Source: Mytilus trossulus
Taxonomy: Eukaryota
Direction: 5' to 3'
Length of the DNA stretch: 64,000 nt
NCBI RefSeq assembly: GCF_036588685.1
Contig: NC_086383.1
Span: 42,036,001-42,100,000, forward strand
Under the pieces are notes generated by a model, which worked only from the letters and a program-made list of their open reading frames with translations, was not told the origin of the DNA and ran no database searches. Shown here in pieces: positions 4,423 through 56,381 of the stretch (position 1 is its first letter; every line of letters begins with the position of its first letter). Made by a program: the position numbers and the translations under genes.

Positions 4423-4901
4423 TGGTTCCTCTTTTTATATCAGCCAGTTGATATTGTACCACTAAGCACAACTTCTCACATTGTCGAAATTTTATACGCT
4501 GCAAGGTATATTAAATGTCATTCATGTCTTAATAAAAAAAACTGTGGAATGCCATTTAAGACTTAATGTAGACGAAACGCGCGTCTGGCGTACTAAATTA
4601 TAATCCTGGTACCTTTGATAACTATTTACACCACTGGGTCGATGCCACTGCTGGTGGACGTTTCGTCCCCGAGGGTATCACCAGACCAGTAGTCAGCACT
4701 TCGGTGTTGACATGAATATCAATTATGTGGTCATTTTTATAAATTTCCTGAATATAAAACTTTGAATTTTCGAAAAACTAAGGATTTTCTTATCCCAGGA
4801 ATAGATTACCTTAGCCGTATTTGGCACAACTTTTTGGAATTTTGGATCCTCAATGCTCTTCAGCTTCGTACTTGTTTGGCTTTATAAATATTTTGATATG
4901 A

Positions 4902-4945
4902 GCGTCACTGATGAGTCTTATGTAGACGAAACGCGCGTCTGGCGT
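4902..4945 (+). ncRNA. Type I hammerhead ribozyme 1
   Basis: GCGTCA-CTGATGA-GTCT(TATGT)AGAC-GAAA-CGCGCGTC^TGGCGT: intact core, stem II, palindromic minimal stem III, stem I closed with GU pairs; predicted cleavage after 4939. Confidence 0.92.
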
Positions 4946-5255
4946 ACTAAATTATAATCCTGGTACCTTTGATAACTGTTTACACCACTGGGTCGATGCC
5001 ACTGCTGGTGGACGTTTTGTCCCCGAGGGTATCACCAGCCCTGTAGTCAGCACTTCGGTGTTGACATGAATATCAATTATGTGGTCATTTTTATAAATTT
5101 CCTGAATATAAAACTTTGAATTTTCGAAAAACTAAGGATTTTCTTATCCCAGGAATAGATTACCTTAGCCGTATTTGGCACAACTTTTTGGAATTTTGGA
5201 TCCTCAATGCTCTTCAACTTCGTACTTGTTTGGCTTTATAAATATTTTGATATGA

Positions 5256-5299
5256 GCGTCACTGATGAGTCTTATGTAGACGAAACGCGCGTCTGGCGT
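5256..5299 (+). ncRNA. Type I hammerhead ribozyme 2
   Basis: Identical motif; predicted cleavage after 5293. Confidence 0.92.
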
Positions 5300-5609
5300 A
5301 CTAAATTATAATCCTGGTACCTTTGATAACTATTTACACCACTGGGTCGATGCCACTGCTGGTGGACGTTTCGTCCCCAAGGGTATCACCAGCCCAGTAG
5401 TCAGCACTTCGGTGTTGACATGAATATCAATTATGTGGTCATTTTTATAAATTTCCTGAATACAAAACTTTGAATTTTCGAAAAACTAAGGATTTTCTTA
5501 TCCCAGGAATAGATAACCATAGCCGTATTTGGCACAACTTTTTGGAATTTTGGATCCTCAATGCTCTTCAACTTCGTACTTGTTTGGCTTTATAAATATT
5601 TTGATATGA

Positions 5610-5653
5610 GCGTCACTGATGAGTCTTACGTAGACGAAACGCGCGTCTGGCGT
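5610..5653 (+). ncRNA. Type I hammerhead ribozyme 3
   Basis: Same motif with loop II variant TACGT; predicted cleavage after 5647. Confidence 0.92.
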
Positions 5654-5771
5654 ACTAAATTATAATCCTGGTACCTTTGATAACTATTAATGGTTTAGAA
5701 TTCATAGTACTCTAAGCTTTCAATTGCTATATTGTCTTTAGTAGTATTGCTAGAAAACATTCTATATCCAT

Positions 5772-12918: not shown

Positions 12919-13978
12919 ATATTGACAAATGAATTTATAATAATCTAGCTATCTGAAATTATTTGGCAAAAAAACAACCAACAACCGGTCATTAATTGAT
13001 AGGATTCTTCTGTATGATGGTTTAATGTCATTAATTGATAGGATTCTTCTGTATGACGGTTTAATGTCATTAATTGATAGGATTCTTCTGTATGACGGTT
13101 TAATGTCATTAATTGATAGGATTCTTCTGTATGACGGTTTAATGTCATTAATTGATAGGATTATTCTGTATGACGGTTTTATGCCATTAACAGGTAGGAT
13201 TATTCTGTATGACGGTTTTATGTCATTAATTGGTAGGATTATTCTGTATGACGGTTTAATGTCATTAATTGATAGGATTATTCTGTATGACGGTTTAATG
13301 TCATTAATTGGTAGCATTATTCTGTATGATGGTTTAATGTCATTAATTGATAGGATTCTTCTGTATGACGGTTTAATGTCATTCATTGATAGGATTATTC
13401 TGTATGACGGTTTAATGTCATTGATTGATAGGATTATTTTGTATGACGGTTTTATGTCATTAATTGATAGGATTATTCTGTATGACGGTTTAATGTCATT
13501 AATTGGTAGCATTATTCTGTATGGAGGTTTAATATCATTAACTGGTAGGATTATTCTGTATGACGGTTAAATGTCATTAATTGGTAGGATTATTCTGTAT
13601 GACGGTTTAATGTCATTAATTGGTAGGATTATTCTGTATGACGGCTTAATGTCATTAATTGGTAAGATTATTCTGTATGACGGTTTAATGTCATTAATTG
13701 ATAGGATTCTTCTGTATGACGGTTTAATGTCATTAATTGGTAGCATTATTCTGTATGACGGTTTAATGTCATTAATTGATAGGATTATTCTGTATGACGC
13801 TTTCATTTCATTAATTGGTAGGATTATTCTGTATGACGGTTTATTGTCATTAATTGGTAGGACTATTCTGTATGACAGCTTAATGTCATTAATTGGTAGC
13901 ATTATTCTGTATGACGGTTTAATGTCATTAACTGGTAGGATTATTCTGCATGACGGTTTAATGTCATTAATTGGTAAG

Positions 13979-14740
13979 TGTGCTATTGCGGACCTCTTTT
14001 TGTATTGTTACGAGTTACAATTTATGACAAAAATAAGCAAAGACCCATCAAAACAACATCTGATAAACAAATTTAATAATACTTTTAGATATTTGGATGA
14101 TATTTTGGCTCTCAATAATGACGACTTCAGTATGTATATTAATGAAATTTATCCTGGTGAACTCACTTTAAATAAAGCTAATACTAACAATGACCACTGC
14201 CCTTTCCTCGATCTTGATATCTATATCACTAACGGAAAGCTGAATACTAAAATTTATGATAAAAGGGATGATTTTTCATTTCCTATCGTTAATTATCCGT
14301 TTTTAGATGGTGACGTTCCCTTGTCACCATCTTACGGTGTTTATATATCTCAACTTGTACGATTCGCTCGTGTATGTAACAATGTTTTAGATTTTAACGA
14401 GAGAAATTTATGTATTACTGAAAAATTATTACACCAGGGGTTTCGATATCACAAACTAGTCAAAACATTTACTAAATTTTATCATCGGTATAAAGACATC
14501 ATTCGAAAATATAGCTCAACATGCAGACTTTTTATACGTTCAGGTATTTCACATCCAATTTTTTATGGAAATATTCTTTATAAAGCACAAAGGTGTCAGT
14601 ATTCACCTCATAAACTTACAAAACCTTTGAATAGACTTATTAAGAAGGGATATAATTACGATACTGTTGTCAAGTCATTAAAGATTGCATATTTTGGAGT
14701 TAATATTGAGTCACTGATAAGGTCTTTGCGTCGGAACTAA
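13979..14740 (+). pseudogene. RT palm/thumb fragment of the Naiad-type PLE, open to TAA
   Basis: C-terminal ~253 aa of ORF 13571..14740; the ORF's N-terminal part is satellite read-through. Confidence 0.85.
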
Positions 14741-14790
14741 ACACATTTATTCTAAAAACAGTTGTTGGCATGACACGGGTTATGTTCTTC

Positions 14791-14857
14791 TCATATATGT
14801 TATGATGGTATGATACTAAACCCCTTACGGGAAGGATTGTGCCTGATGTTCATATGA
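14791..14857 (+). promoter_or_regulatory. Eukaryotic SECIS element (type II) in the Naiad 3' UTR
   Basis: ATGA at 14802, 12 nt, then AAA at 14818-14820; apical CCC/GGG mini-stem; helix II GGTATGAT/ATTGTGCC; 3' quartet strand TGAT at 14844; helix I TCATAT/ATATGA. Confidence 0.8.
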
Positions 14858-17800
14858 TGAAATCATAATCTTTCAGTCAGTTTAATTGAAGTCTGGAGCT
14901 CGCATGTCAGTTAACTGCTAGTAGTCTGTTGTTATTTATGTATTATTGTCATTTTGTTTATTTTCTTTGGTTACATCTTCTGACATCAGACTCGGACTTC
15001 TCTTGAACTGAATTTTAATGTGCGTATTGTTATGCTTTTACTTTTCTACACTGGTTAGAGGTATAGGGGGAGGGTTGAGATCTCACAAACATGTTTAACC
15101 CCGCCGCATTTTTGCGCCTGTCCCAAGTCAGGAGCCTCTGGCCTTTGTTAGTCTTGTATTATTTAAATTTTAGTTTCTTGTGTACAATTTGGAAATTAGT
15201 ATGGCGTTCATTATCACTGAACTAGTATATATTTGTTTAGGGGCCAGCTGAAGGACGCCTCCGGGTGCGGGAATTTCTCGCTACATTGAAGACCTGTTGG
15301 TGACCTTCTGCTGTTGTATTTTTTTATTTTGGTCGGGTTGTTGTCTCTTTGACACATTCCCCATTTCCATTCTCAATTTTAAGATTATTCTGTATGACGG
15401 TTTCATTGTCATTAATTGGTAGGATTATTCTGTATGATGGTTTAATGTCATTAATTGGTATGATTCTCCTGTATGACGCGGTTAAATGTCATTAATTGGT
15501 AGGATTATTCCGTATGATGGTTTAATGTCGTTAATTGGTAGGATAATTCTGTATGACGGTTTATTTTAATTAATTTGTAGCATTACTCTGAATGATGGTT
15601 TAATGCCATTAATTGGTAAGATTTTCTGTATGACAGTTTAATGTCATTAATTGGAAGGATTATTCTGTATGATGGTTTATTGTCATTAATTGGTAAGATT
15701 ATTCTGTATGACGGTTTAATGTCATTAATTTGTAGGATTATTCTGTATGACTGTTTAATGTCATTAGCTGGTAGGATTATTCTGTATGACGGTTTCATGT
15801 CATTTATTGGTAGGATTATTCTGTTTGATGGTTTAATGTCATTAGTTGGTGAGATTATTCTGTATGATGGTTTAATGTCATTAATTGGTAGGATTATTCT
15901 GTATGATGGTTTATTGTCATTAATTGGTAAGATTATTCTGTATGACGGTTTAATGTCATTAATTGGTAGGATTATTCTGTATGACGGTTTAATGTCATTA
16001 ATTGGTAGATTACTTTTCTTGACGGTTTAATGTCATTAATTGGTAGATTACTTTTCTTGACGGTTTAATGTCATAAATTGGTACAATTATTCTGTATGGC
16101 GGTATAATGTCATAAATTGGTCGGATTATTCTGTACGACGGTTTTACGTCATTTATTGGTAGCATTATTCTGTATGACGGTTTAATGTCATTAACTGGTA
16201 GGATTATTCTGTATGACGGTTTAATGTCATTAATTGGTAGGATTATTCTGTATGACGGTTTAATGTCATTAATTGATAGGATTCTTCTGTATGACGGTTT
16301 AATGTCATTAATTGGTAGGAATATTCTGCATAAAGTTTTAATGTCATTAATTGGTTGGATTATTCTGTTTGACGGTTTAATGTCATTAATTGATAGGATT
16401 ATTCTGTATGACGGTTTAATGTCATAAATTGGTAGGATTCTTCTGTATGACGGTTTAATGTCATTAATTGATAGGATTCTTCTGTATGACGGTTTAATGT
16501 CATTAATTGGTAGCATTATTCTGTATGACGGTTTAATGTCATTAATTGATAGGATTATTCTGTATGACGCTTTCATTTCATTAATTGGTAGGATTATTCT
16601 GTATGACGGTTTATTGTCATTAATTGGTAGGACTATTCTGTATGACAGCTTAATGTCATTAATTGGTACCATTATTCTGTATGACGGTTTAATGTCATTA
16701 ACTGGTAGGATTATTCTGCATGACGGTTTAATGTCATTAATTGGTAAGATTATTCTGTATGACGGTTTCATTGTCATTAATTGGTAGGATTATTCTGTAT
16801 GATGGTTTAATGTCATTAATTGGTATGATTCTCCTGTATGACGCGGTTAAATGTCATTAATTGGTAGGATAATTCCGTATGATGGTTTAATGTCGTTAAT
16901 TGGTAGGATAATTCTGTATGACGGTTTATTTTAATTAATTTGTAGCATTACTCTGAATGATGGTTTAATGCCATTAATTGGTAAGATTTTCTGTATGACA
17001 GTTTAATGTCATTAATTGGAAGGATTATTCTGTATGATGGTTTATTGTCATTAATTGGTAAGATTATTCTGTATGACGGTTTAATGTCATTAATTTGTAG
17101 GATTATTCTGTATGACGGTTTAATGTCATTAGCTGGTAGGATTATTCTGTATGACGGTTTCATGTCATTTATTGGTAGGATTATTCTGTTTGATGGTTTA
17201 ATGTCATTAGTTGGTGAGATTATTCTGTATGATGGTTTAATGTCATTAATTGGTAGGATTATTCTGTATGATGGTTTATTGTCATTAATTGGTAAGATTA
17301 TTCTGTATGACGGTTTAATGTCATTAATTGGTAGGATTATTCTGTATGACGGTTTAATGTCATTAATTGGTAGATTACTTTTCTTGACGTTTTAATGTCA
17401 TTAATTGGTAGATTACTTTTCTTGACGGTTTAATGTCATAAATTGGTACAATTATTCTGTATGGCGGTATAATGTCATAAATTGGTTGGATTATTCTGTA
17501 CGACGGTTTTACGTCATTTATTGGTAGCATTATTCTGTATGACGGTTTAATGTCATTAACTGGTAGGATTATTCTGTATGACGGTTTAATGTCATTAATT
17601 GGTAGGATTATTCTGTATGACGGTTTAATGTCATTAATTGATAGGATTCTTCTGTATGACGGTTTAATGTCATTAATTGGTAGGAATATTCTGCATAAAG
17701 GTTTAATGTCATTAATTGGTTGGATTATTCTGTTTGACGGTTTAATGTCATTAATTGATAGGATTATTCTGTATGACGGTTTAATGTCATAAATTGGTAG

Positions 17801-19358
17801 GATTCTTCTGTATGACGGTTTAATGTCATTAATTTGTAGGAGTATTCTGCATGATGGTTTAATGTAATTAATTGGTAGGATTATTCTGTATAACGGTTTA
17901 ATATAAGATGTGTATTGTTGACTGACTGACTTGCTCATATACAGTATGTTTCTATATGATATTTGCTAGCATACCGTTCTCCCTTAAACTAACTAAGCAT
18001 TTTCATGATATTCTATTCTATTCGATATTTTCCCTATTTATCAAATTAACCATTGGTAGCATTATTCTGTATGACGGTTTAATGTCATTAACTGGTAGGA
18101 TTATTCTGTATGACGGTTTAATGTCATTAATTGGTAGGATTATTCTGTATGACGGTTTTATGTCATTAATTGTTAGAATTCTTCTGTATGACGGTTTAAT
18201 GTCATAAATTGGTAGGATTCTTCTGTATGACGGTTTAATGTCATAAATTGGTAGGATTCTTCTGTATGACGGTTTAATGTCATTAATTGGTAGGAGTATT
18301 CTGCATGATGGTTTAATTTTATTAATTGGTAGGAGTCTTTTGCTTGACGGTTTAATGTAATTAATAGGTAGGATTATTCTGTATAACGGTTTATTATAAG
18401 ATGTGTATTGTTGCATGACTGACTTGCTCATATACAGTATGTTTCCATATGATATTTGCTAGCATACGGTTCTCCCTAAAACTAACGTAGCATTTTCATG
18501 ATATTCTATTCTATTCGATATTTTCCCTATTTATCAAATTAACCACTGTAACAAGTCGATATCAAAATTAAAAAAAAGTAGCAAGTATGTTTGCATTTCA
18601 AAATCAAACTTTAAAAAAATATTTTAAATTTGTTTGAGCGGGCAACTCAACCTAATATTGGACAGTGGTGTAACAGCCAACTTTCAAGGTCAACCATGCA
18701 AAGTGCAGTGCGTTATCCTCACTTTTGTTATTTTAATCAGATTTAATGGGTAATGTTTTTGAAGGAAAGTCATTTTCAAACATCCCTTCGGTCATCATTT
18801 TTGGATTTATTCCTTTACTTTTGTTTTAAAATGGAAGCGTATAGCCAATAAACATATCACTTAAAACCATTAACATATTCAAATAACCTAACGTCATAAC
18901 GTACCAAAAACTAAAACCAGATTGGTCAAAATTGCATCAACAAATTTCAAAAAGCAAGGCTACATACTGTTTCAAACGCTAGTAATTTCTTTGTTTACTC
19001 TTCTTTACTGGAGACAAATTATATTTTGAAAATAAACAATACTCACTATTCAGTTTACTTGCTCGCGATTTGCAGTCATATTCTATGACTGTTTTTTCAC
19101 CTATAAATTAAAATATAATTGTTAGTGATTTTAGTTTGGTACGAAAATTCAGACCTCAGAAGAAAAATCATATTTGAATAGTAAATATTTATTTGCCCAT
19201 AATTGCAGTTAACTTCTATTCTATTACACGCTAAATTGGTCAGTTTTGAAACAAGTCTAGACAATGGTTGTGATTATTGTACCTATCTAACTTGATGTTG
19301 AATATAAGAATATCATTTCGGCAAAGAACTGAAGCATTTAATTTTTCTTAGTAATTGG

Positions 19359-20293
19359 GATTTCAGGGAGACAAGGTGAGTCGACAATTAGTTACTACGA
19401 TTTTATTTAGACAAGCTAAGTCGACAAATAGAAACTACGATTTGAGGGTGACAAGGTGAGGCGACAATTAGTTACTACGGTTTGATTCAGACAAGCTTAG
19501 TCGACAAATAGTAACTACGATTTGAGGGAGACAAGGTAAGGCGACAACTAGTTACTACGGTTTGATTCAGACAAGCTTAGTCGACAAAAAGTAACTACTC
19601 TTTGAGGGAGACAAGGTGGGTCGACAATTAGTAACTACGATTTGATGGCGACAAGGTGAGTCGACAAAAAGTAACTACGATTTGAGGGAAACAAGGTGAG
19701 TCGACAATTAGTTACTACTTTTTGATTTAGACAAGCTTAGTCGACAAATAGTAACTACGATTTGAGGGAGACAAGGTGAGGCGACAACTAGTTACTACGG
19801 TTTGATTCAGACAAGCTTAGTCGACAAAAAGTAACTACTATTTGAGGGAGACAAGGTGGGTCGACAATTAGTAACTACGATTTGATGGCGACAAGGTGAG
19901 TCTACAAATAGTAACTACGATTTAAGGGAGACAAAGGGAGTCAACAGAAAGAAACTGTTATTTGAATTAGAAAAGATAGGTCTACAAAGGGTAAATACGA
20001 TTTGACTGAGACAAGTGGAGTCGACAGAAAATAACTACAATATGATTAAGACAAGGGAAGTCTATAGAAAGAAACTATTATTTGAATTAGAAAAGATAGG
20101 TCTACAAAGGATAAATACGATTTGACTGAGACAAGGGTAGTCTACAGAAAATAACTACAATATGATTAAGACAAGGGTAGTCTACATAAAGTATCTGCGA
20201 TTTGAGTAAAACAAGGTAAAACGACATGAAAAAGCTAAGATTCAAGTGAGAGAAAGGGTAGTCGACAAGAAGCATCTACGAGTTCAGTTAGAC
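19359..20293. repeat. 40-bp minisatellite (GGGAGACAAGGTGAGTCGACAATTAGTTACTACGATTTGA), partly 80-bp dimeric, degenerating toward the GPCR
   Basis: GTCGAC/GTCTAC recurs every 40 bp. Confidence 0.9.
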
Positions 20294-20458
20294 ATTTATT
20301 TGTGTTTAAGATTATGATACGTATTGTTTACAATGTTTATATTAATTATTTCCAAGTTTATCCACAAATGTATTTATTTCCTTTGTTCTGATTTTGTTTG
20401 TTTTTTCATATTGCTTTCTTTGAACCAATGCACATCTGTTTCAGGTACCCTAGTTGAT

Positions 20459-21580
20459 ATGCCACCAACGAATATATCATCTTGGTTAAATGCTTTGTTC
20501 AACAGTGTTCCAGATGTAAAGACTGTTCAACAGTTACACGAAATAAGTATTTTCTCACCGAAAAAGCAGTTTTCTGAAGATATACAATTATATTTTATTT
20601 ACTGCCAACCTATACTAATCTCTCTGATTTTAATTTGGATGGGAGTATCACTGAAAATTGTTTGGACAGATGATTTCAGGAACAAATATGGACTGATGAC
20701 AGCTTACACCAGTCTTGAAATAGTCGCATGTATACTGCAAAATATAGCATGCATACTCGTTTTTTCGACAGAAAGCAATTATGTTGAATATGAATGGTGT
20801 TATGTTTATGAAGCGGCATCAGAATATATTCCAGGATGTTTGCATTTAATTTCGAAGGGTTTAAGAATTGGCCATGCTTTGTTAATTGTCATCCTACTTT
20901 ACACACCACTAAAATTCAAAACCATCATCAATATAAAAGCATGTGTTTTGTTTTGCACATTAACTGTTTTTTGTTCATGTACTGTTTTTGTTACATATTT
21001 TTTGTTATCTGTTCGTTTTGAAAAGACAACAGTGTTTGATCAAACCACGCAGGAAATAAAAGCAGTATGTCGACATAAAGATGGTTTCGTCAACTCAAAT
21101 ACAATAAACGAAGATACCGAATTTGTTCGACAGATTATCATGGATGTAATGAGTCATATTGCACCTACTTTATTGATGATATGTCTGTCAATAGCCATTC
21201 ATTTACTTTTAAAAAAACAGATAAAAACCAGACTGAAACTTCGGAGAGAGTGCACGGAACGGGTGAAATCAGACACCAGACTTGCAAGAGTAACATTAGT
21301 GGCGACATTAATCTCTATCATATTCACCCTACCAGCAATACCTACAACTATTGTACTAAACACGGAGTTGAAATCATTGGAAGGTGCAATAAAAATTTTA
21401 GAGATCATCAACACAGTCGTGAAAGTAACATTCATATTAAATGTACCTATTAATTTCTTTATTTTCAGCTGGCTCTCTAAAGACTTCAGAGAAAACATAA
21501 TGAAAATATTGAAGTCTGTACATCTGACGCAGAAGAAACCAAGGGGACATGTTTCATCGCAGGAAGCAATTATAGAATGA
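20459..21580 (+). CDS. Orphan rhodopsin-class 7TM GPCR (FMRFamide/sex-peptide-receptor-like or chemoreceptor-like), 373 aa, copy A
   Basis: Acceptor TTTCAG ends at 20444 before ATG 20459; N-glycosylation site NIS; seven hydrophobic segments; WC at the top of TM3 and an ECL2 Cys; TM5 Pro (IAP), TM6 LP, TM7 PINFFIF plus helix 8 SKDFR. Confidence 0.88.
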   Translation: MPPTNISSWLNALFNSVPDVKTVQQLHEISIFSPKKQFSEDIQLYFIYCQPILISLILIWMGVSLKIVWTDDFRNKYGLMTAYTSLEIVACILQNIACILVFSTESNYVEYEWCYVYEAASEYIPGCLHLISKGLRIGHALLIVILLYTPLKFKTIINIKACVLFCTLTVFCSCTVFVTYFLLSVRFEKTTVFDQTTQEIKAVCRHKDGFVNSNTINEDTEFVRQIIMDVMSHIAPTLLMICLSIAIHLLLKKQIKTRLKLRRECTERVKSDTRLARVTLVATLISIIFTLPAIPTTIVLNTELKSLEGAIKILEIINTVVKVTFILNVPINFFIFSWLSKDFRENIMKILKSVHLTQKKPRGHVSSQEAIIE

Positions 21581-28545: not shown

Positions 28546-28914
28546 GTGTTGTTTTGAATTTTTTTACATCACCGGGTCGAAACCTCTGCTGGTGAAATAT
28601 CAGTTCCCGTGGGTATCATCAGCTCAGTAGTAAGTACTTCGGTACTGACATGCATGATTTAACAAACTCTAAAATTGTCCGTTTAGAAATATTGAAATTA
28701 TTAAGAAACTAAGGTTTCAACTCCCTCAGGCAAAGTTGACTTTAGATGAATTTGGCTATTTATTTTAGATATTTTTGTCATATAGCTCTTCAACGGTTTC
28801 GGTTCTTATATATCTTTGGATTTCAAATATTTGTCTTTGAACGTTCTTTATGAAGGTAATCCAGAAAAGCGCTTTGGACGCATATAATTATTAAACGTGT
28901 TGTTTCAATTTTTT
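28546..28914 (+). mobile_element. Second retrozyme family, ~1.05 units of 351 bp, with a decayed hammerhead
   Basis: Terminal redundancy GTGTTGTTT at 28546 and 28897; shares the GGGTCGA..GCTGGTG..GGGTATCA..TTCG-hairpin domain with the 354-bp unit; HHR-like ACGTTC-TTTATGA-AGGTAATCCA-GAAA-AGCGCTTT^GGACG with a mutated core. Confidence 0.75.
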
Positions 28915-29899
28915 GTAAGCTATACCAGTTCCCCATCATTACCAAATGCATGTAAAACCATTAAAAAACGAAGACAAAAGTATAATTTTGGCAGAATAAA
29001 TAAAACAATAAAAAAAAAACAAATGTGACACATAAATTATTTTTGAAAAAAACGACTCCCTCAGTTATTATAGGGGTTCGCATAACATCTAATAACTTGA
29101 TCAGAATTATTGCAAAGCTTTTATTATTGCTAAATGTGCGACTAGAAGAATCATCATGAAATAGAACTCGCATTTTTATAAATTTATTTATGTAACTTTT
29201 CATGTAAACCACATTTTTGTGCACTGTTCAATAATCGGGAAAAAATAAGTACATACACACATTTCTGAATTTACAACAGTTTAAAGTTAGGTGGTGTATA
29301 TGGAAAATGTTAAGACAGCGCTTTGCACCTAAGAGAACATTTTTGATGATGATTGAATGAAACCCTTAAAACGTAATGCATTTCGATGATTTGAACACAT
29401 AAAGAGGTTTTTCCCACGTAATCGGATAATCCTATTAAACCGATTTTTGCCGTTAAACAGTTTATGGAAATCTAGATTTGTCAGGTTTCTTACATTTGAA
29501 AGCGTTATATCTAAAGCCATAAAGACTATTATGCATTTGTAGGGTCAACTACTGCAAATATTAGAAAGAAAAAGAAACCAGACAAAAATAAATTATTTGA
29601 ACTCTACTAAATGGAACATTTAGATTTTAGGTTCATCCCTCTGCATTGATAACTTCCCGATAAGTTCATACAAATACGGGCAGTTTAGTTCAGATTATTA
29701 AACTTTTATTGTAACCAATTAGAACAGTCAGTTATAGTAAACACAATGAAGATAAAAGAGTAACAGAACGGTTGTCAGATAAAAATATGCAATAGGGCTG
29801 AGGCCTCAACTAGGTCGTGGCCTGGTTCAAGCGCATAATATTTAAAAACAACACCCTGTACGAAGATAAAAGAAATTTAAAAAAAAGTATGGTCGAATC

Positions 29900-30742
29900 A
29901 AAAGAGGGACGAAAGATACCAATGGACAGTCAAACTCATAAATCGAAAATAAACTGACAACACCAAGGCTAAAAATGAAAAAGACAACCAGACAAATAAT
30001 AGTACACATGACACAACATAGAAAACTAAAGAGTAAACAACACGAACAGCCCCAAAAAATAGGGGTGATCTAAGGTGCTCCGGAAGGGTAAGCAGATCCT
30101 GGTCCACATGTGGCACCCATCGTGTTGCTTATGTGATAACAAATTCGGTAAAGAGTCCTATTCGGTATAGGTCAAATTCATGAAAGGGAAGCGGATTGTA
30201 GTAACGACGTAAGGAACATATCCAATATCATTTGTGAAACGGTTATTTCATAACGGTCAACCAGCGCGTGATGGCGTCCGTAACATTAACGAAGTGATGA
30301 TTCAACTTTTCCATTTGGAACTCTTGATTTAATAGTTTCCTTGTGAGCAACAACCCTCTATCAAGAAAATCATGATAGGAAATGCAAGCATGGGAATATC
30401 GTATCAATTGAGAGATATATACACCGTATGGAGGTGCTGCTGGAATGTTGCTACTTAGAAATGGAAAGTTCACAATTGGAAAGCTGAAATCTCTTTTGTC
30501 GTAAAGTTTTGTTTTCAACCGACCCTCATTGTCAATTTCTAGATGTAAGTCAAGATATGAGGCCGACTTAACTGTATCTGTTTTATCCTTTACCTCTAGT
30601 TCGATGGGATAGATGCGTTCAACATAATCACCAAATTTTGAATTATTTAGTGAAAGAACATCATCTATATAGAGGAAAGTAGAGTTAAAAGATATTGCTA
30701 ACTTTTTTTATCTTTCTTCATAAGAAGCTCCTGTATGAAGTC
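29900..30742 (-). mobile_element. Decayed 5'-truncated Naiad-type PLE (RT fragment plus 3' UTR)
   Basis: Minus-strand FLYIDDVLSLNN near 30645-30680 and YDKRDFSFPIVNFPFLSSNIPAAPPYGVYISQLIRY; frameshifts and stops. Confidence 0.88.
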
Positions 30743-31160: not shown

Positions 31161-32080
31161 ATCAAAGGAACAAGCGAAACAAGACTGCTATACTTTTGAC
31201 TGGGTACAGATATCTTCTAAAGATAAGGGTGGGTTTAATCAGGTTAAATAGACAGCTAAATTCCCATATGGTCTGATGAATGTTTTCTTAGATAAGATAC
31301 TTTTTCTTGTAATTGAAGCCAAAAAGTGGCATATTAGTGGATGGTATATACACTATCTAAATCTGAGTAAATTTAAGAGCAGTTATCTGACATATGAAAG
31401 CAACAAAACTTTTCCATTGCTTTCAATATTTAAAAAAAACCCCATCTTTTTCTTGTGTGGTAAGAAAAATCAAAATAACCAAGTCACGTAAAACTCATAC
31501 AGTTAGTTATGCCTCTTTGTCCAATAGCCATCACTTCATTTAAGGCTTATGAGAAATAACAATTCGCATTGGGGCAAAATGAACACGATGAATAATGCTT
31601 ATCTTAGGAAACAGGATAGCACAATTAGAAATTAAACACTTAGTTTACGAAAATTGGTACAAAGAGTCTTCACTCACATGCATGGAATGAACCATACTTG
31701 AAAATCAAAATAACCAAGTCACGTAAAACTCATACAGTTAGTTATGCCTCTTTGTCCAATATCCATCACGTTGTACATCTAAGGCTAATGAGAAATGACA
31801 AGATGAAGAATAAAGGCAACAGTAGTATACCGCTGTACGAAATTCATAAATCGATTGAGAAAAAACCCCAAATCCGGGTTACAAACTAAAATTGAGGGAA
31901 ACGCATCAAATATAAGAGGAGAACTACGACACAATTGAAACACAACATTAAAATGTAACATACACAGAAACGAACTTTAATATAAGAATGGCTATTTTCC
32001 TGACTTGTAGCATGCCAAACCATTTCTAAAGAAAACATTCCTTAACAAAGATGATAGAACAATTAGAAATATAACACTTT

Positions 32081-32139
32081 ATGTAGACGAAACGCGCGTC
32101 TGGCGTATAAAATTATAATCCTGGTACTTTTGATAACTA
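32081..32139 (+). mobile_element. 59-bp retrozyme fragment (3' half of the hammerhead plus 39 nt)
   Basis: ATGTAGACGAAACGCGCGTCTGGCGT...GATAACTA; the related local repeat near 31621-31700 lacks it. Confidence 0.85.
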
Positions 32140-32491: not shown

Positions 32492-32697
32492 TGAATTTTC
32501 CGAAAAACTAAAGATTTTCTTATCCCAGGCATAGATTACCTAAGCCGTATTTGGCACAACTTCAGGAATTTTGGATATTCAATGCTCTTCAACTTTGTAC
32601 TTATTTGGCTTTATAATTATTTTGATATGAGCGAGTCTTATTTAGACGAAACGTGCGTCTGGCGCACTAAATTATAATCTTGGTACCTTTGATAACT
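32492..32697 (+). mobile_element. Truncated retrozyme copy with the hammerhead core deleted
   Basis: Homologous to the 354-bp unit; GAGCG^AGTCTT lacks TCACTGATG. Confidence 0.85.
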
Positions 32698-35669: not shown

Positions 35670-37538
35670 TGATTGACCAAGAAACTCTCATACTATGAAT
35701 ATCCTGAATAAATAAAAAAAAACAATGTGAAAATTATCATCACAATTGAAACCTTAATCATATTAATAGTAAAGCATATACATTAATATTACACAAAATA
35801 ATAGCAAAAAGACAAAGCTCTTACAATCAGATACTTTCAGTAAACAGAAGATAAAATGGCACGATCCTACTCTATACTCGGCATATTAAATGATTGGTCA
35901 TTTCGATCTATCTTTCAAAACTTTGCCTATCATAAGCAATTACTGTTTATATTTCTATACAACCCTTGAGTTTTGATTTGTAGTTAAAAGTCTTTTTTGT
36001 GTCGACAAATTTTTGTTTTTTATAAAGTTTTTTTTTTTTTTTAAATATAGTCACATTAAAAATCCAGCCACAGTCATGAAATTAACATATTGTTATTATT
36101 TGAAAGCTTTTTAATGCACCAAAGTAAAGAGAATGAAAGCAAACTTACGTTCTAATATTGTGTTTATATTGCGTCCAGTGAATGTTTACCTGTTTTTGTT
36201 TAAATGTCTTTTTGAGCGAGTTAAGCCATTTCAATTGATATTTTATAGTGTGTCTTTTATTTTGTAATTCTACACTACTGTCTCAGGTTAGGTTGAAAAT
36301 TGGCTCATGTTTAAAGGTTTAAACCCGCTTCATTTTTATGCACCCCTTCCTAAGTCAGAAGTCTGTCGGTGTGAGCCAATGCTACATGTGAAAGGCCGTA
36401 CCTTGACCTATAATTGTTAACTTTGTATACATTGTGACTTGGATGATGAGTTGTCTCATTGGTTTTATGTTCTTTGTAGTATTTTGATTTTTCGCTTTGC
36501 GTGACAAATGTTGGTGTTTATCTCTTCGATGTACATTGTTTTTTTTTATTGATCTCTTATGATCTTCTCACTTTATTTAATTTAAAAAAAACCTTCTTTA
36601 CCGGAATTAATGAATGAATAATATAATAAAATTCTTTAGAACAGAAAAAAACATCATGTACATAATTTATAACGGTCTTTGCTTTTCTTCTTGATTTATG
36701 AACATCACAAATATGATCCTTCGGACTATATTTTCAACCAATTTTTCGCAAAGTGTTCTTTCATTAAAAGACATCTAAGTATTTCTTTGAAATAATGCTG
36801 AATTCTATACAAAAAAATTGTTGAATAATACAATTCCTGGTATTAAAAAGACGTAGACAATTTTCTTGTATATACAAATTCATACAGAACAAATCTACCG
36901 TTGATTTTCATGCAATTTCGATAGCAAAAAAAATTAATAAAGTGTACTCCAGTAATGCAGTACTAACAATCGATTATTTTTTTTCCATAGCTTAAGAAAA
37001 TCAATTTCATTTATTATTTGTCTATCATGTCTATCGCATATCAAATTAAAGGCATGTGTGAACACGTTTTTTTCTATTCAAAATAACTCGACATTACACA
37101 AAGATTTCGGGAGAAATAACGAATAAGGGAATGTTAATATTGAATATCACTTTCATGTTATTTTGTTCTATACAAAGAGTTGTCTAATTTGCAAGAAAAC
37201 CACATTTTCCTCCTTTTATTGATTGATTGATTGGTGTTTAACGCCACTTTCAACACTTTTGTGATATCTTGTGGTGGTTAGTTTTTATTGGTGAAGGTGT
37301 AATGCCACCAAATCATCCGGTTTCATACGAAAAAGGGTCGAAGAAATATTCCCTTGAATTTGACAGTTGTAGGAAATGAATCTTACATTTTTTTTTGTAA
37401 TTATTTTATTTTTCAAGATGAAACATGTGATATTACATAATACAGTATTAGACACAAGGTATAAAAAGTTAATTAATACTTATCAGATCGATTAAATCAT
37501 AATGGTATAACAAGATATAAATATTACAATTGATTTTG

Positions 37539-40500
37539 TTAATTAAATGCTGCTTCTAACAATTGCCACTTCTGATCCATTTTTATTTTTTGTGTAGGGG
37601 TTAAGAAACATACAGAGTATTTTTCTATTGTAATCCAATACTTTAAATATTCTATCCCACCATATTTTGTGGGCAGTACACTCTTACATCTACATTTGTA
37701 TATATAGTATTTAAATAACAACAAGATATTATTAACTGTTTTACTGTTGACAGAATCCTCAGACACACCTAAAATGACCTCTTTTGCACTAAAAGGCAAG
37801 AAGATTTCGTAATTTCTAATCCAATCTATAATGGATAACCAGAAGTTTTGTGTTACATTACATTCCCAAAAAATGTGAAAAATATTTTCTTTAACTTCTG
37901 AACAAAATGTACATAGTTCAGTTTCTTTTAATTTACATTTATATAAAAAGGAATTACATGGTAAAATCCTATGAACAATCTTAAATTGAAAATTTTGTAA
38001 AAACGAATTTTTGGTTATAATGAAGGGCATGGAATAAATAGCATTCCAATCTTCAATCTGTAAATTTAAGTCTATTTACCATTTGTTACGGGAAGAAAGA
38101 GATAATACTTTATTATCCTCCAGAAATAAATTATAGAAAAAATTACAAGACTTAGGTTCTTTTTTAACTTTATCTACTAATTTATTTTCAATATTATCAA
38201 GTTTAGAACTACCTACTATCCTACTTTTCCATATATTTGGAATAGCACTTAAAATACCATAAAACTCTACAAAATTAGTATTGAAATTATACTTTTTCGC
38301 AAATTCTTCATATGAGAATAATGTATTATTATCTGACACCAGATCATTGATGAAAAATATGCAATTTTCAATATATTTACCCTTCAAAATCATCTTGCCA
38401 TCCATTTTGATGTTTGGATTTAGCCATATGGACTGGGACAGAATATCGGTGTTGTTTTCAACTTTCAGTTTATTTTTCAATTTTGAAAAATTAACCAGGA
38501 TATCATGCCAAAAGGGATTGACTTTTTTTGCTAAATAAAGCAATCCTTCCTTACTTAAATGTAAAATTTTGTCCCCCCCCAAATTTTTGTATATAACTAA
38601 GCAGCAACACTTTCCAAGGAGAGTAATTTTGGGGGTCTAGTAATTTATACAGCCAAGACATTTTAACGCTATAACAAAAATAGTAAATATTAGGCATCTT
38701 AAGACCGCCATCACAGTGTTCGGACATAACCACTGTTCTTTTCACTTTATCTGGTTTTCCTTTCCATAAAAAATTGAAAAATATATTTTGAATCTCCTTC
38801 AAAACCCCATCTGGGGGGTTAGGGAGGACAGTCGGAACTTGAACCAGAATGGGAAGTGCTAAAGTTTTAATCACCACCACCCTCCCAATATATGTTAGTT
38901 CTCTATAAGCCCAAGTATTAAGAAGTGACTTGATACTGTTTATCTTGGCTGTAAAATTACATAGAGTCTTATCCCTTTTAGCAAGCTCAAACCATATTCC
39001 TAATAGTTTGAACCTCCCAGAAAGGTTCCAAACAAGATTTTTTTCTGGTAAAAGTTTTTCCATACTACCCTTTTTTGACCCAATCCATATGGCCTCAGTT
39101 TTGTCAACATTACACCTGAGTCCAGCACATTCTGAAAATTTATCAAACAAATTTAGACATTGATTTAGAGACTTTTGGTCACCATCCAGGACAAGGGAAG
39201 AATCATCAGCATATTGACTCAATAAAAATTCTGAGTCATTAATAGTTACTCCAGCAACATCAGGGTCATTTTTAATAGCTGTCCGTTGTTTAACACTGCA
39301 CTAGAGGCATCACAGTAGCATGCCTTAATCCAACTTATAAATGTTTGGTCAAAGCCATAAAACTGCAACGCCTCTAGTATAAAAGACCATTCGACCGTGT
39401 CGAAAGCTTTTTCAAAATCGACTAAAAGTAAAAGTCCAGGAATGTCGTCTTCCTCCATCTTTTCCATTAGATCATAAATAAATCTAGTACATTCACCTAT
39501 GTACCTACCTTTAAGAAATCCTTTTTGTGTTTGACTTATTATATTTACCAGCACCTTTTTTAGTCTATTTGCTAAACTTGCTGTAGCTATCTTATAGTCT
39601 ACACACAAAAGTGTGATAGGTCGCCAGTTCTTTAAATAAAATTTTGACTTACCCTCCTTTGGTATACAAGTAATGAGTCCCTGTCTTTGTGTGATTGAGA
39701 ACTTTCCATATTCAGGACAGACATTCCTGCATTGTTAAAAGTCCCTCACAGGAACCCACCTCTTCCTCATTCGGTTTTGTAATAAAAGGATTATCATGTT
39801 AAAGAAATGTGTCCCTGTGAGTTTCAAGTAACAATGGTTTACAACAAGTATATAATTTTTTATAAAACTGTTTTTGCTCATTTCTAATAGAACTAGGATC
39901 TGTTATCTCAGTCTCGTCCTCCAAAATAAGTTTGGGAATAATTTTTTCTGTGTAATGTTTTTTTTCCAAATTACAAAAAAAGTTACTTCCCTTTTCCCCC
40001 TCTACTTGCCATCTTGCCTTAGCTCTTGTAATTATCCCTTTTACATTTTTTTCCCTCAATATTTTTAATTCTAGTTCCATCCCTTCCCTTTCTTGGTATA
40101 CTGATGGCAAGTTATTCTCCAAAAGTTTTTCATCTAATAATGATATCTTATATAGTAAATCTTTTTCTTTTTATTTTCTTCTTTTTTCTGGAAAGACGAC
40201 AAAGAGATAGCAGACCCACGGACTTTCATCTTAATCATATCCCATAAAAGCTGATAGCTTATATTAAACTGTTTATCCTCTGTCTCAATATCAATAGATG
40301 GATCAGACTCATATTCTTCAATGACAGTTTTGATGTCCCCTTTTACTTTCTCAATAAATTCAGTTTCCCTTAAAAGACTGTTATTAAATTTCCATGTACC
40401 CTTCCCTCTTATCTGACTAGAAAACTTTAAATTAATCGACACAGGAGAATGATCCGATCTATAACTTATTCCTATATCTGATGAAACTACAAATACTTCT

Positions 40501-41129
40501 ATATCTGATGTAATCATGAAGTAGTCCAAACGACTTTGTTTGTGATTTGGACCCCGCCATGAGTACCTATTATCAAAAGGGTGCTGCTGGCGCCATATAT
40601 CTAATAGATCTAGTTCATGCATTACCTCATGAATCTTGGCTTTTGACTGGGGGTTGTTTTCACTTCTATAATGTAATGTGTCCATGTCATAGTCTTGAAC
40701 AACATTCCAATCTCCCACTACTACAATTGACGAATTGCTGTAGCGGGATATTTTCTGTTTTATGTTCTCAATAAAGACTGGGTCATCATTATTCGGTCCA
40801 TATATAGCTGCCAAAGTTATACGGTAGTCCTGAATAGTGATATCTAATGTAATAAAATTACCCACCAGGTCTATAGTTTCATCATGAATCTTGAATTCGA
40901 AAGTATTTTTGAAAAGAATAGCTACCCCTCTACTTTTACTAGAATAAGAACTAAATTTCCCCACATATCCCCATTCATGAAGCCATTGTTTTTCTTTTTC
41001 AGATGTGCTATGGGTGTCTACTAATATAGTTATATCATATAAGTCCTTATATTTTGTAAATATATCAATTCTTTTAACTGTTTCTGATAAACCCCTGCAG
41101 TTTACGCTACCAATAGTTATATTCGACAT
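37539..41129 (-). pseudogene. LINE ORF2 (APE endonuclease, RT, zf-RVT), fragmented
   Basis: SVNCRGL, IYGPN, GDWN, SRLDY, SDH (APE); WRPITLL, DFEKAFD, YADD (RT); CTFC..ENIFHIFWEC. Several frameshifts; the QG motif region is deleted near 39280. Confidence 0.92.
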
Positions 41130-42530
41130 AATATAATAAAGTGGTTAAAAATGAGTAGCATAAATAATATAAATATCTACAAGCACAATATATCAAAGCA
41201 GCATTAACAAAACATACACACATGCGTCTATAATACGTAAAAGTTGTTTCACAATGTTTCAATTTTTTACTTAAAGTTACCCCCAACCCCCAAAGACTTT
41301 TTGTCGAAAGCACCATGCTATGAATAGAATGAGCATTACTTTTGTGCTAAAGTAGAAACAAAAAAATATATCATAAAAGTTCTGTAAATCTCCAATTTTT
41401 TTTCTCAATTTGCATGTTTTAAATTTTAAATTTGTGTATTGTTTGTCTAAAGGAGAAGACAAACAAATAAAGATGAATTAATAATATTAACATCGTGAAA
41501 AGAAATAACTGAAGAAAAAAGTAAATAACGAAAAAGAAACAACACAGAATATTTAACAACACATAAACATGATAAACTTGTATTCACACAATGTAAACAA
41601 AACACATATAAATATATATACACACATGCGCCCCACATGCATTTACTGATACAAGAACATACATCTATAATTTTTCCTGTCTGAATTTTTAAACAGCACA
41701 GATTCACTACCTTTACATGTACATTCTCTTTATTTTGCATAAATATTGTAAGAAGAGTGTCAATTCTTAAGTATGAACATACCCAGATTTGACGAATCTA
41801 TTTATAGAAGATTATTTTTGCATACATATCAAGGTTGGATCCGTAATTTTAATAATGAACTATCTAAAAGTACATGTGAACCTATGACCTGTTTTATACC
41901 ATGTTGTAGTTATACTTATAGCTACATGTATTTGTTGGAGAAAGCCTGTCAATTTCAAATAAATTGCATGCTGGTAGGTTTATGCATACATGTAGGGTTT
42001 GTTTCTAACTGGATCATAATATCCATGTAATCAGACTAGTTTTATCAAAGTATCTAAACGGTCAATGAAAATTCGTTTTAATACGTTTAGATGACGCCGT
42101 GTATATTGTCATTGATTAAGATTTTACTTATATTTAATTATAAAATAGAATACGCTATATTGGGTACACTTTTGCATATCAGTATAGTGCCATTTCAGTT
42201 TTTGAGTTAATAATCACAGTAAAAACCGATTAATTCTTACCAATAATCTTTAAAAAGTGTATTTTCAATGTGTGTTTTTTATAAAAATTGTACACCGGAA
42301 GTTTTGAAACGGATAGTAAAAGTATACACAAAGACGGAAATGACTTTTTATATTCCGTAAAAAAACAAAATTAAACTCAGGTAATTCTGACTACAATACA
42401 AATATTCACACTTACAACTCTTGTGAAAAGGAAAAAAACGAAATACTATAGGAAAAACAACCATAAACGAGAACAACATTAAATAGATTGAAAAGAATGG
42501 ACATCAAATATTAAATGGACAGTTATGCAT

Positions 42531-43494
42531 CTATTCTATGCCGGATTTTAGTTTCTGCCTTATGTTGTCGTAAATGTCAAAACGATGCCGATCTCCGTTA
42601 TTGTCAGTGCCATATATGTGTCCGTTGAAATACCACGCACTGGTAACATCCTCATGTAGGTATAACCGATTAAGAAGTCCTTGGTTTAATCGTGTTACAT
42701 CATCAGAAATCCGAACTTCCAACTTCTCATTGATTAGTTTTCTATTTCGAAGTAAAGCAATTTTAGATTCCATGCGGAGAAATTTTACTAAAATTGGCCT
42801 AGGTTTGCCCGGTTTTCCAGGGATCCTGTGTGCTTCTACAATTTCTGATTGGTCAATATTAACGTCCAGTTTACCTATCTCAGTGAGAAAATTGTGAGGC
42901 AATTTTTCCCCCCTTTTTTTCTGGAAAGTCAAATATTTTAACGTTTTTCTTCCTTGAATATTGTTCATTCCAATTAGATAATTGCATTGCATCTGTTGCA
43001 CGCCTACCTGTATTTTCTATTTCTTCTTTCAGTAGTCTGTTCTCTTTATGAAGGCTTGCGTTGTTTTCTAAAATATTTGCATTGTCAAATTCTACGCTAT
43101 CAATTCTTGCACTTAGCCTAGATACTTCTGATTTAAAGTGTTGTTCTACTTTCTCTTGGTTAGATTGAATTTCGACCATCATTTCTTTTTTTAGTTCTTT
43201 TTTCATCTCTTTTTTCATTTGGGTGAGTAAGCTTGTTACAGTTTGTGTTACAATCAATTCAACATCTTCTTTTCTCAATATGTTTTTCATGGAATTTCTT
43301 ATTTCATTTAATTCTGTTTCAATGCATAGACTGTGATCGCCATCGCTAGATAGGCATGTAAGCGGGCGTTTTGCAGATTTTGGTTTTGCGGGTGTTGAGT
43401 CACTAAATACAGAGTCGTCATTTTCCGGTGTAGCAGATAGTTTGCCAACGTTAGCTGTCGATACAAAGCTTGTTATTTGCTGTTGTAGTGCCAT
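42531..43494 (-). pseudogene. LINE ORF1 (coiled coil plus L1-type RRM/CTD), frameshifted near 42910
   Basis: EQYSRKKNVKIFDFPE joins AHRIPGKPGKPRPILVKF...ISDDVT...AWYFNG across two frames. Confidence 0.85.
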
Positions 43495-46400
43495 TATCGG
43501 AGGACGGAAAATGTTAATGTTTAAATACTATACTATACAATATTGATATCTGGCTTTGTTTTGTTTTTGTTTACAAAATTTACGATCTATTTTTGAACTG
43601 CTATATAGTGAGTGTTTTTTACTCAATTAAGTCACTACCAATGTCTATATTTAGAATGTTTTTTTCTATCTTGAATCTAACATTTCATTGCAGTAAAAAT
43701 TTACTGAGTCATAAACATATATCTTGGGTGTTTCAACGCCCATTATTTTTTTTCATTTGGTGTTTCTATAGAATATTTTGGAAAGTTGAGGTTTTCTGGT
43801 GAGTGAAGCTTATACACAGGGAAAAAAAGGGATGATAATTTGTTGGTTAACTTCCAGTGTTGGTTAGTTTCTTATATGCAATGAAATGTATGTGAAATTT
43901 TGTCTATAGTACTGGACAGGATAAAACTTTACTCATGCAAAGTATTTCTTTATTTGAAACAAAGATAAATTCTGCACATTTTTTAAAAAGTGCAAATTTA
44001 CCAAAGACTTATAAGGGAATGTCAATGTTGGTATTACACCTATTGTCGGAAGCTGCACATGCACCTTTAACTTGTGAGTACTCACATTTGTTAAAATGTC
44101 ATGCTATTTAAGTGAAATATTCTGAGTGAATTGAGTCTCAAAAACTCATTTTATGAGAAAACTGCCTTGAAATAGGACTCTACCTTGAATGTTAGTAGAC
44201 AGAACAGACATACTCAGTCTTTTGGGGAGCTTGTTCTCACTTTTTCTCCTTATTTCTTATATTTTGCTATAATAGAAAACTTTTTCCGAAGAAATACTTT
44301 AATAAATAGATAGATATTAGTAAATGATTTTTTTTTAAGCAGTAACAACAAATTATTTACGTAAAGGGAAGCTTTGTATGTCCCTCTCTGGAATGCGGCG
44401 TAAATTTGAATTTTTCGGAAGGACTTGTTGAAACCTCAATGGAGTCAGTAAACATTTATATGGATAGTTCATTCGGCTTGAATACTTCAATACTCAATCA
44501 CATTTCTTTCATAAATGAGTGAAAGTAACATCAACAAATACTAAAATTTTGAGTAAATGAGAGGTATAAATGAAACAAAAGAGACCTTATAATGAAGATA
44601 AAGGGGTTTCAGTGGTATTTATCATCCTAAAGTCATCTAGTGTATCATATTCAACTGTGTGTAGGCAGATGAGATAACACTATATTCTACCATGATGCGG
44701 CTTGATTTGAATTTTTCGAAGAAATTTTGCTTGATCACTGTCGATGTCGTCTTACAATATACTAGATTTTTCTCAAACTAATGAACTGATTATGATAAAA
44801 CTTGACATAAAATAACCAGTATTACAAAGGGAAACAATCACATTCAGTTTATTCAATAAAAAAGTATTCTTTATGTGAAAAACCACCAAATCATACTACG
44901 TCACATCCGGTTGCATCTTAAAAAGGGTTAACAATAAATATTACCTTGGATTTGACAGTTGTAGGAAATTAATCTTAATTTTCATTGCAGTAAAAAATTT
45001 CTGAGTCATAAACATATATCTTGTGTGTTTCAAAGCACCATTATTTTTTTTTATTTGGTGTTTCTATTGATTATTTTTGAAAGTAGAGATTACATAAAGC
45101 TTGTACACATGTAAAATATGATTGGCTAATTTCCAGTGATTGTTATTTTCTTATATGCAATGAAATGTTATGTGAAATTTTATCTATGGTACTGGACAGG
45201 ATTGAACTTTACTCATGCCAAGTATTTCTTTATTTGAAACAAAGATAAATTCATCACATTTTTTTTTAAAAGTGCAAATTAAACAAAGAATAATATGGGA
45301 AAGTCAATGGTGGTATTACACGTAAAGGAAGCCGTCTACGGAGAAAACCATCGACCTTCGGTAGGAAAACTGACATTTCTAGTCAATTAAGGTTGGAGTC
45401 GAGTGCACCCGCACGAGCGAGGTTCGAACTCACAACCTCAGTGTTGACTGGCTAGTGATTACAGTAGTTAAACTGCTTAGACCACTTGACCACCGAGGCG
45501 CCTGGTTCCTCTTTTTATATCAGTCAGTTGATATTGTACCACTAAGCACAACTTTTCACATTGTCGAAATTTTATACGCTGCAAGGTATATTAAATGTCA
45601 TTCATTTCTTAATAAAAAACTGTGGAATGCCATTTAAGAATTAATGGTTTGGAATTCATAGTACTGTAAGCTTTCAATTGCTATATTGTCTTTAGTAGTA
45701 TTGCTAGGAAACATTCTATATCCATCTACATAACTCGAAAAATTCAGCGCCATCTTACGGTCGGTGTCGTTCAGAGTTAATCGAGTGATCGTAGTGAGCG
45801 GAATATAACGACTGGATTATTCGGGTTAACATCTACAAGTATGGTAGTTAATTAATATAACTTCATATACAATAGATGTGACTTTTTAAAATCAATCCTT
45901 TTTTCACGATAAAGATTAAAACTTTCTACAGATTATTCAGTGACTTGGTTCCTCAAATTAACTCTTTTTATATATTAATAAATGGTGTCTTCATAAATTT
46001 GTAAGGTCTTTCCACATTACTTTTCTAAGTAGTTAATAAGAAGCTACTTCCGATTCAATTAAAGTTACCATTGGCATTCAATTATATAAATTTCTTCATA
46101 CTAATTAAAAAATTATAAGGTTTCTATATACTTTTAACTTAAATATGGGAAATACTTTGCTACTTCCGGTTAATAAAATATCATTTCTGGTTTCATATGA
46201 TAGCTTTCTATGCACTGATTCCAAAATTATAATGGTTTTCATATACTTTTTCCTTAAATATAGGATATAATTTGCTACACCCGGTTAAAAAAAATGTCAT
46301 TTCCGGTTTCATAAGATAGCTTACTTTCAACTTATTCCGAAAATGTATGATTTCTATAATAGATACTTTTCTTTCAAATAAGGGAGATACTAAGCTACTT

Positions 46401-56216: not shown

Positions 56217-56381
56217 ATTTATTTGTATTTAAGATTATGATACGTATTGTTTACAATGTTTATATTAATTATTTCCAAGTTTATCCACATAAGTATTTAT
56301 TTCCTTTGTTCTGATTTTGTTTGTTTTTTCATATTGCTTTCTTTGAACCAATGCACATCTGTTTCAGGTACCCTAGTTGAT

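Follow-up and report, generated by a model that had tools for sequence, protein, structure and literature searches.

The tandem repeat at 4569-5686 of the window (the whole Mytilus trossulus stretch of 64,000 nucleotides that was analyzed) is, at a probability of roughly 0.8, a mussel-type retrozyme, present in 3.16 head-to-tail copies, flanked by a target-site duplication (TSD), and pasted in by Penelope-like enzymes from circular or uncut multimeric RNA. One array with a period of 354, 3.2 copies and 98% matches was reported by Tandem Repeats Finder at 4566-5688, and base-level comparison with a duplicate block in the window placed the insertion at 4569-5686, i.e., 1118 bp or 3 x 354 + 56; the coordinates and the 3.2 units of 354 bp given in the initial annotation were thus exact. 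In the self-comparison of the window, most of 278-26215 recurs at 35367-62128; the left flank of the insert was alignable through 4568 and the right flank from 5686-5687, and their counterparts are adjacent around 45640-45646. Copies of TTAATG bracket the insert as a 6-bp TSD (chance expectation from base frequencies, about 8e-4), and the duplicate block, which is about 2% diverged, carries a single TTAATG at 45641-45646 and no insert, the absence of the array from the duplicate having been noted from the sequence earlier. A deletion from the duplicate block in place of an insertion was ruled out, the TSD standing on both sides of the insert and in one copy at the empty site. Target and element also share microidentity at both array junctions (ATG on the 5' side, TT on the 3' side). 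The features of the locus are as follows.

4563-4568 (+): left TSD, TTAATG, of which the last three bases (ATG) match the element too; base-level comparison
4569-5686 (+): retrozyme insertion, 3 x 354 + 56 bp; tandem-repeat search, self-comparison and alignment
4569-4585 (+): 5'-truncated hammerhead half beginning in loop II, without the CUGAUGA core and the 5' strand of stem I; sequence
4586-4939 (+): unit 1, with no intact ribozyme 5' of it, so that release as a monomer is not predicted; sequence
4902-4945 (+): type I hammerhead 1, predicted cut 4939/4940; RF00163, 33.0 bits
4940-5293 (+): unit 2, predicted 354-nt monomer; sequence and motif anatomy
5256-5299 (+): type I hammerhead 2, predicted cut 5293/5294; RF00163, 33.0 bits
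5294-5647 (+): unit 3, predicted 354-nt monomer; sequence and motif anatomy
5610-5653 (+): type I hammerhead 3, predicted cut 5647/5648; RF00163, 33.3 bits
5648-5686 (+): 39-nt tail beyond the last cut site, ending at the fixed 3' terminus of the family, the putative start of reverse transcription; alignment and family ends
5687-5692 (+): right TSD, TTAATG, of which the first two bases (TT) match the element too; base-level comparison
45641-45646 (+): empty site of the duplicate block (or second allele), with one TTAATG; self-comparison and alignment

The two blocks could represent either a tandem duplication or a pair of alleles that the assembly has joined; for M. galloprovincialis a heterozygosity of 1.73 +/- 0.24% has been reported, along with extensive hemizygosity (PMC7653742). 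A second filled and empty pair is formed by an L1/Tx1-like LINE at 37391-43673 (-), which has an ORF1-like region, an endonuclease (PF03372) and a reverse transcriptase (RT; PF00078) in several broken frames, is confined to the second block, and has its empty site near 2620-2631. The window also holds two intact single-exon copies of a rhodopsin-family GPCR-like ORF at 20318-21580 and 56241-57503 (+), which differ by 6 synonymous and 7 non-synonymous codons. In addition, strongly strand-skewed minisatellites with repeats of 39 bp and 40 bp occupy 12988-18393, 51780-54198, 19359-20267 and 55161-56139, the 39-bp repeat having long open repetitive frames on both strands.

When Rfam was searched by E-value, Hammerhead_1 (RF00163) matched three times (33.0, 33.0 and 33.3 bits; E 4-5e-6). 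A scan of the window at the gathering score gave no matches, since all three motifs score just under the RF00163 threshold of 34. When both strands of the 64-kb window were scanned with a motif descriptor, these three intact motifs and no others were recovered, and the three intact type I hammerheads of the initial annotation, with their palindromic stem III, were thereby confirmed. Each consists of a 6-bp stem I, the core CUGAUGA, a 4-bp stem II with a 5-nt loop, GAA, and the cut triplet GUC; stem III is 2 bp with a GCGC loop, lying in the perfect 8-nt palindrome ACGCGCGU. Self-cleavage of array transcripts after GUC is predicted, the first base after the cut being 4940, 5294 and 5648. Since the partial motif at 4569-4585 has no catalytic core, only units 2 and 3 should be releasable, in agreement with the two monomers proposed at the outset. 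For a published mussel retrozyme monomer the cleavage rate is about 0.1 per min (PMC7229834). Eight of nine vertebrate dimers tested did not cleave (bioRxiv 10.64898/2026.07.22.740005), a caution for predictions of this kind.

It had also been suggested that such hammerheads often cleave as dimers, and as a requirement this was not supported. The letters of stem III are identical to the Rfam Hammerhead_1 consensus, and hence the motif is canonical rather than minimal; in the dimer-dependent minimal type I hammerhead stem III is absent or 1 bp, whereas here it has 2 bp and a tetraloop, and the published mussel monomer does cut (PMC7229834). In folding, the active fold of the 44-nt motif alone reached -5.7 kcal/mol against a minimum of -9.2 kcal/mol, the double hammerhead was the minimum of the two-copy fold (-29.5 kcal/mol), and in the whole-unit fold the active stems had near-zero predicted pair probability. 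Folding therefore permits a dimer route without requiring one. The amphibian satellite-2 and axolotl retrozymes are similar in their palindromic stem III loop, their possible double-hammerhead cleavage and their units of 330-350 bp, near the 354 here; however, they need dimers to cut efficiently, whereas in invertebrates monomers suffice for motifs that, like the present ones, have a stem III of 2 bp (PMC7229834).

The array is almost certainly a non-LTR retrozyme. Such elements consist of tandem non-coding units of 150-450 bp with a GC content under 45-50%, and the units here are 354 bp with 39% GC (window, about 31%). They contain at least two consecutive intact type I hammerheads, one per unit, and three were found, each about 1 bit under the gathering score. 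They have a TSD of more than 4 bp and no LTR pair round a PBS/PPT body; the insert has its 6-bp TSD and, as its sole terminal redundancy, 56 bp (4569-4624 = 5631-5686). They are abundantly transcribed, which was found for the family, not for this locus specifically. Within 4569-5686 there was neither an ORF of 120 amino acids nor an ORF with RT plus GIY-YIG.

In M. galloprovincialis, Cervera and de la Pena (2020, PMC7229834) described about 5000 type I hammerheads in two families with self-cleaving 350-390 bp repeats. The array agrees with that description in its tandem units, one type I hammerhead per unit, low GC and abundant RNA, and no difference was found in this comparison by description. 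It very probably belongs to the published Mytilus family, which it resembles in size, type I motif, GC and lack of an ORF. The Mytilus retrozymes number thousands of copies in two ribozyme families, and here a second, diverged family lies in the same window. Its decayed full unit at 28563-28915 (+) is 77% identical over unit positions 40-132 and alignable throughout, with short terminal redundancy and a hammerhead-like end of altered core and palindromic AAGCGCTT stem III; no Rfam hammerhead match was obtained in it. A UUCG hairpin with one compensatory change is common to this unit and the array unit.

It is highly improbable that the repeats are instead the pseudo-LTR (pLTR) ends of an autonomous Penelope-like element. 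Penelope-like elements do have type I hammerheads in their pLTRs and a tail of 30-40 bp (PMC8557442), and the Xenopus retrozymes are related to pLTRs (bioRxiv 10.64898/2026.07.22.740005). However, the TSD fixes both ends of the insert with nothing coding between them, and head-to-tail joints of the unit were seen both in RNA and at another locus, L002. Descent of the unit from a pLTR is possible.

The retrozyme belongs to a dispersed multicopy family, with four more pieces in the window, seven of nine further loci (L001-L007; the remaining two, L008 and L009, were chance 21-mer matches), and 150779 aligned contigs in the contig set X15. Two sequence patterns of the family found no loci in viral contigs; in genome contigs the tail pattern found none and the hammerhead pattern gave three matches, two of them chance matches in GC-rich bacteria. 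The L007 copy (182-275) comes from a contig assigned to a cyanobacterial metagenome bin; the end of the contig that holds it is A/T-rich and is probably animal DNA. In the eight family copies inspected, the element terminates at a common point 38-44 nt downstream of the cut site, and the target DNA is A/T-rich. The tail was matched 13 times in the window and in L001-L006: seven matches end no more than 3 bases beyond unit position 38, and six continue into the next unit; the L007 copy stops at position 44, and the second-family unit terminates at the equivalent place. An AC-rich stretch begins after unit position 41. In reads and contigs, among the ends listed, loose ends with unlike continuation were frequent behind 4977 (402, 501 and 441 reads and 331 contigs), where the continuation is A/T-rich and starts with ATT (agreement 0.41-0.52), with a smaller number behind 4981-4982 (74-149). 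At 4900 and 4946 the loose ends continue uniformly and belong to a related subfamily, which is also seen in L001.

The 5' ends are variable. Three of eight visible ones lie at unit position 337-338 (4569, 32083 and L005), the others near 168, 178, 240, 304 and 324; it is to be noted that the L loci were selected by a pattern starting at position 338, which bears on these apparent 337-338 ends, and that no preferred 5' end in loop II appeared among the 24 loose-end rows listed from reads and contigs. The terminal redundancy of the array (loop II to +39) recurs as solo 57-nt copies at 32083-32139 (+) and in L005 (9-68), the former having a TTAT duplication and lying in a repeat with a diverged, uninterrupted relative near 31620-31690. 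Two 5'-truncated copies, 32492-32697 (+), which has lost its catalytic core through a 9-nt deletion, and 62540-62569 (-), both end at the common 3' terminus.

RNA of the family was examined with unit 4763-5116 as query in three RNA runs from two studies and in X15 (kind unrecorded), i.e., 4 of 24 listed runs. All three RNA runs contained it: 5678 of 8.71 M, 6423 of 8.25 M and 3114 of 12.73 M reads aligned, or 652, 778 and 245 per million. First mates fell on the minus strand about five times more often in two runs (ratios 5.2 and 5.1 over nine bins), the third being unstranded; in the usual stranded library such an excess denotes RNA of the ribozyme strand. Only 185/5678, 154/6423 and 80/3114 reads (2-3%) were at least 99% alike to the query, and at the variants of this locus (4863, 4978, 5018, 5042) most reads show the other letter. 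The RNA is therefore family RNA from other copies, and expression of the array locus itself was not borne out. An 11-mer at 4990-5000 (unit positions 51-61), kept in both retrozyme families, resembles a B-box. Pol III transcription of the unit was set aside, as seven runs of at least four T per unit disfavor read-through.

The commonest head-to-tail joint, 5116 to 4767, was crossed by 441, 507 and 71 reads and was also found in X15 contigs. Read starts and ends did not pile up anywhere on the unit in the three RNA runs, and the cluster of ends anticipated at the GUC^UGG cut site was accordingly missing there. Head-to-tail joints without pile-ups favor circles, or multimers left uncut, over abundant linear monomers, and since the same joint stands in the X15 contigs, the reads cannot separate circles from arrays. 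Of the circularization expected in the initial annotation, abundant family RNA compatible with circles is what stood; the joints also fit uncut multimers. Circles are the main retrozyme RNA in Mytilus; Mg353, a mussel monomer of 353 nt, was circularized to about 30% by RtcB, against about 1% by self-ligation (PMC7229834).

Variation among the units bears on the age of the insertion and on its template. The three units vary at 10 of 354 sites (2, 3 and 5 per unit); the closest pair, units 1 and 2, has 5 differences, and each of these differs from unit 3 at 7 or 8. Their mean divergence is 1.9% (95% range 0.9-3.5%), and five flank stretches are 1.9-2.8% apart from their duplicates (2.2% pooled). 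The similarity of the two values makes the insertion, within error, roughly contemporary with the divergence of the two blocks; 'young', as the array had been called, is thus apt in a relative sense, but the array is not demonstrably very young. At unit positions 166, 167 and 282 all three units carry bases that are in the minority among family reads, and they therefore share one source. At position 170, however, unit 3 has the family-majority base (170C) and units 1 and 2 share a minority base, and the 39G of unit 2 recurs in L007; thus the units do not form a clean star from a single circle. Of the earlier case for arrival of the whole array in one event, the single insertion site with its TSD is upheld, but the argument from private SNPs is not, since with just three units any two-letter site looks private, and position 170 speaks to the contrary. 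The units may stem from one circle and have mutated later, from a mixed multimer, or from growth in place. Neither terminus of the array coincides with a ribozyme site, and the copy runs through four junctions; hence the template was not a cleaved linear monomer. We regard it as an even bet that the template was one circle, as opposed to a multimer or to the outcome of later local growth.

In one alternative, which we consider unlikely, a copy of 1.16 or 2.16 units inserted once and grew locally to 3.16 by unequal exchange, leaving no rolling-circle record. Such growth would preserve both ends and the TSD, agrees with the closeness of units 1 and 2 (5 differences versus 7 and 8) and their shared base at 170, would yield the solo 57-nt copies (32083-32139, L005) as the reciprocal product, and is the model preferred by Li, Clavereau and Pollet (2026; bioRxiv 10.64898/2026.07.22.740005). 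However, it is a single site that groups two units against the family majority, and a unit divergence of 1.9% against 2.2% for the blocks leaves little time between insertion and growth. It is similarly unlikely that the template was an uncut linear multimer from a source array, with circles having no part in mobility. The Anolis Penelope-like element uses mainly uncut RNA, and its ribozyme mutants still insert (PMC11167929); some of the unit variants are, moreover, standing variants of the family (39G in L007, 222A in 5% of the X15 depth, 170C in the majority). On the other hand, four successive junctions would have to be left uncut, and circles make up 75-95% of the retrozyme RNA detected in mussels (PMC7229834).

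As to the enzyme, insertion by a Penelope-type enzyme is very likely. Penelope-like elements have been proposed as the mobilizers of the Mytilus retrozymes (PMC7229834), and the vertebrate non-LTR retrozymes, which are like the present one in their short arrays (at most 7 units in 75% of families) and proposed Penelope link, are held to be non-autonomous Penelope derivatives by co-occurrence and pLTR homology (Li et al. 2026, bioRxiv 10.64898/2026.07.22.740005). The one Penelope-like enzyme purified so far, Poseidon of Anolis, cuts at ATT and starts in an AC-rich stem-loop downstream of the hammerhead (Frangieh et al. 2024, PMC11167929). Poseidon and the array have in common a type I hammerhead, partial-tandem insertions, a fixed internal start of reverse transcription (putative in the array), and ATT or A/T-rich targets; in contrast, Poseidon is autonomous and encodes its RT-endonuclease, whereas the unit here has no ORF, and Poseidon starts 111-118 nt into its ORF (about 85-92 nt past the cut) versus about 39-41 nt here. 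By this analogy, the unit would resemble a Penelope-like element in behavior, with its fixed internal 3' end and A/T-rich target, without being a member of that group.

The window yielded no autonomous element that shares this tail. It has two C-terminal RT fragments, at 14012-14740 (+) and 30243-30707 (-), with no hammerhead nearby, which look Penelope-like by their YxDD and DKR motifs; the former matched PF26215 (Atlas), and a Pfam search of both gave no match. Mobilization by a LINE, such as the L1/Tx1-like element of the window, is improbable. That element has endonuclease and RT domains (37539-43527), and a 6-bp TSD with variable 5' ends would also suit LINE-type priming; however, the insert has no poly(A) or simple-repeat tail, its 3' end is fixed and internal, and in the self-comparison the unit has no similarity to the LINE.

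With a Penelope-type enzyme, the insertion may be envisaged as follows. Units would be transcribed mainly from one strand and across unit junctions, as was seen for the family at other copies. The hammerhead is predicted to cut after GUC, and a host RtcB-type ligase to close the monomers of about 350 nt into circles, both steps being documented for the Mytilus family (PMC7229834). A Penelope-type endonuclease would then nick A/T-rich DNA, here TTAATG, and reverse transcription would initiate at an internal position of the RNA, about 39-41 nt downstream of the ribozyme site. The enzyme would traverse four ribozyme junctions, i.e., 3.16 rounds of a circle, and copying would stop in loop II, where ATG matches the target. 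Repair would account for the observed outcome, a 6-bp duplication round units that are now 10 substitutions apart.

Tentatively, we suggest that the circular RNA has a defined start for the Penelope-type RT, with priming 39-41 nt past the junction and copying that tends to stop in loop II, a reading we hold to be somewhat less probable than its negation. The docking site would lie just upstream of the AC-rich stretch and the hairpins kept between the two retrozyme families.

Retrozymes of this kind are already published, with self-cleavage and circular RNAs, and so, probably, is the family of the array; with element and circles known, the finding itself changes little, and the fixed start site may be the only part not yet in print. 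No mapped insertion ends or empty sites were found in the available text of PMC7229834, nor molluscs or junction mapping in that of Li et al. 2026, and no mapped 3' terminus of an animal retrozyme was found in the literature as available, although supplements may contain one. The filled and empty sites define both ends of the insertion to the base, and the family-wide 3' end indicates where the mobilizing enzyme must start. The link between retrozymes and Penelope-like elements has so far been argued from homology and co-occurrence (bioRxiv 10.64898/2026.07.22.740005), and a mapped start site makes it testable in vitro. According to a 2020 review, animal retrozymes have no conserved motif that indicates their mobilizer (PMC7761336); if the tentative reading is true, the start site would be the cis signal reported to be missing from retrozymes, and it would explain the insertions of n + 0.16 units and the solo 57-nt ends. 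The array would then preserve, as a clean fossil, an event in which a host circular RNA was copied by rolling-circle, target-primed reverse transcription.
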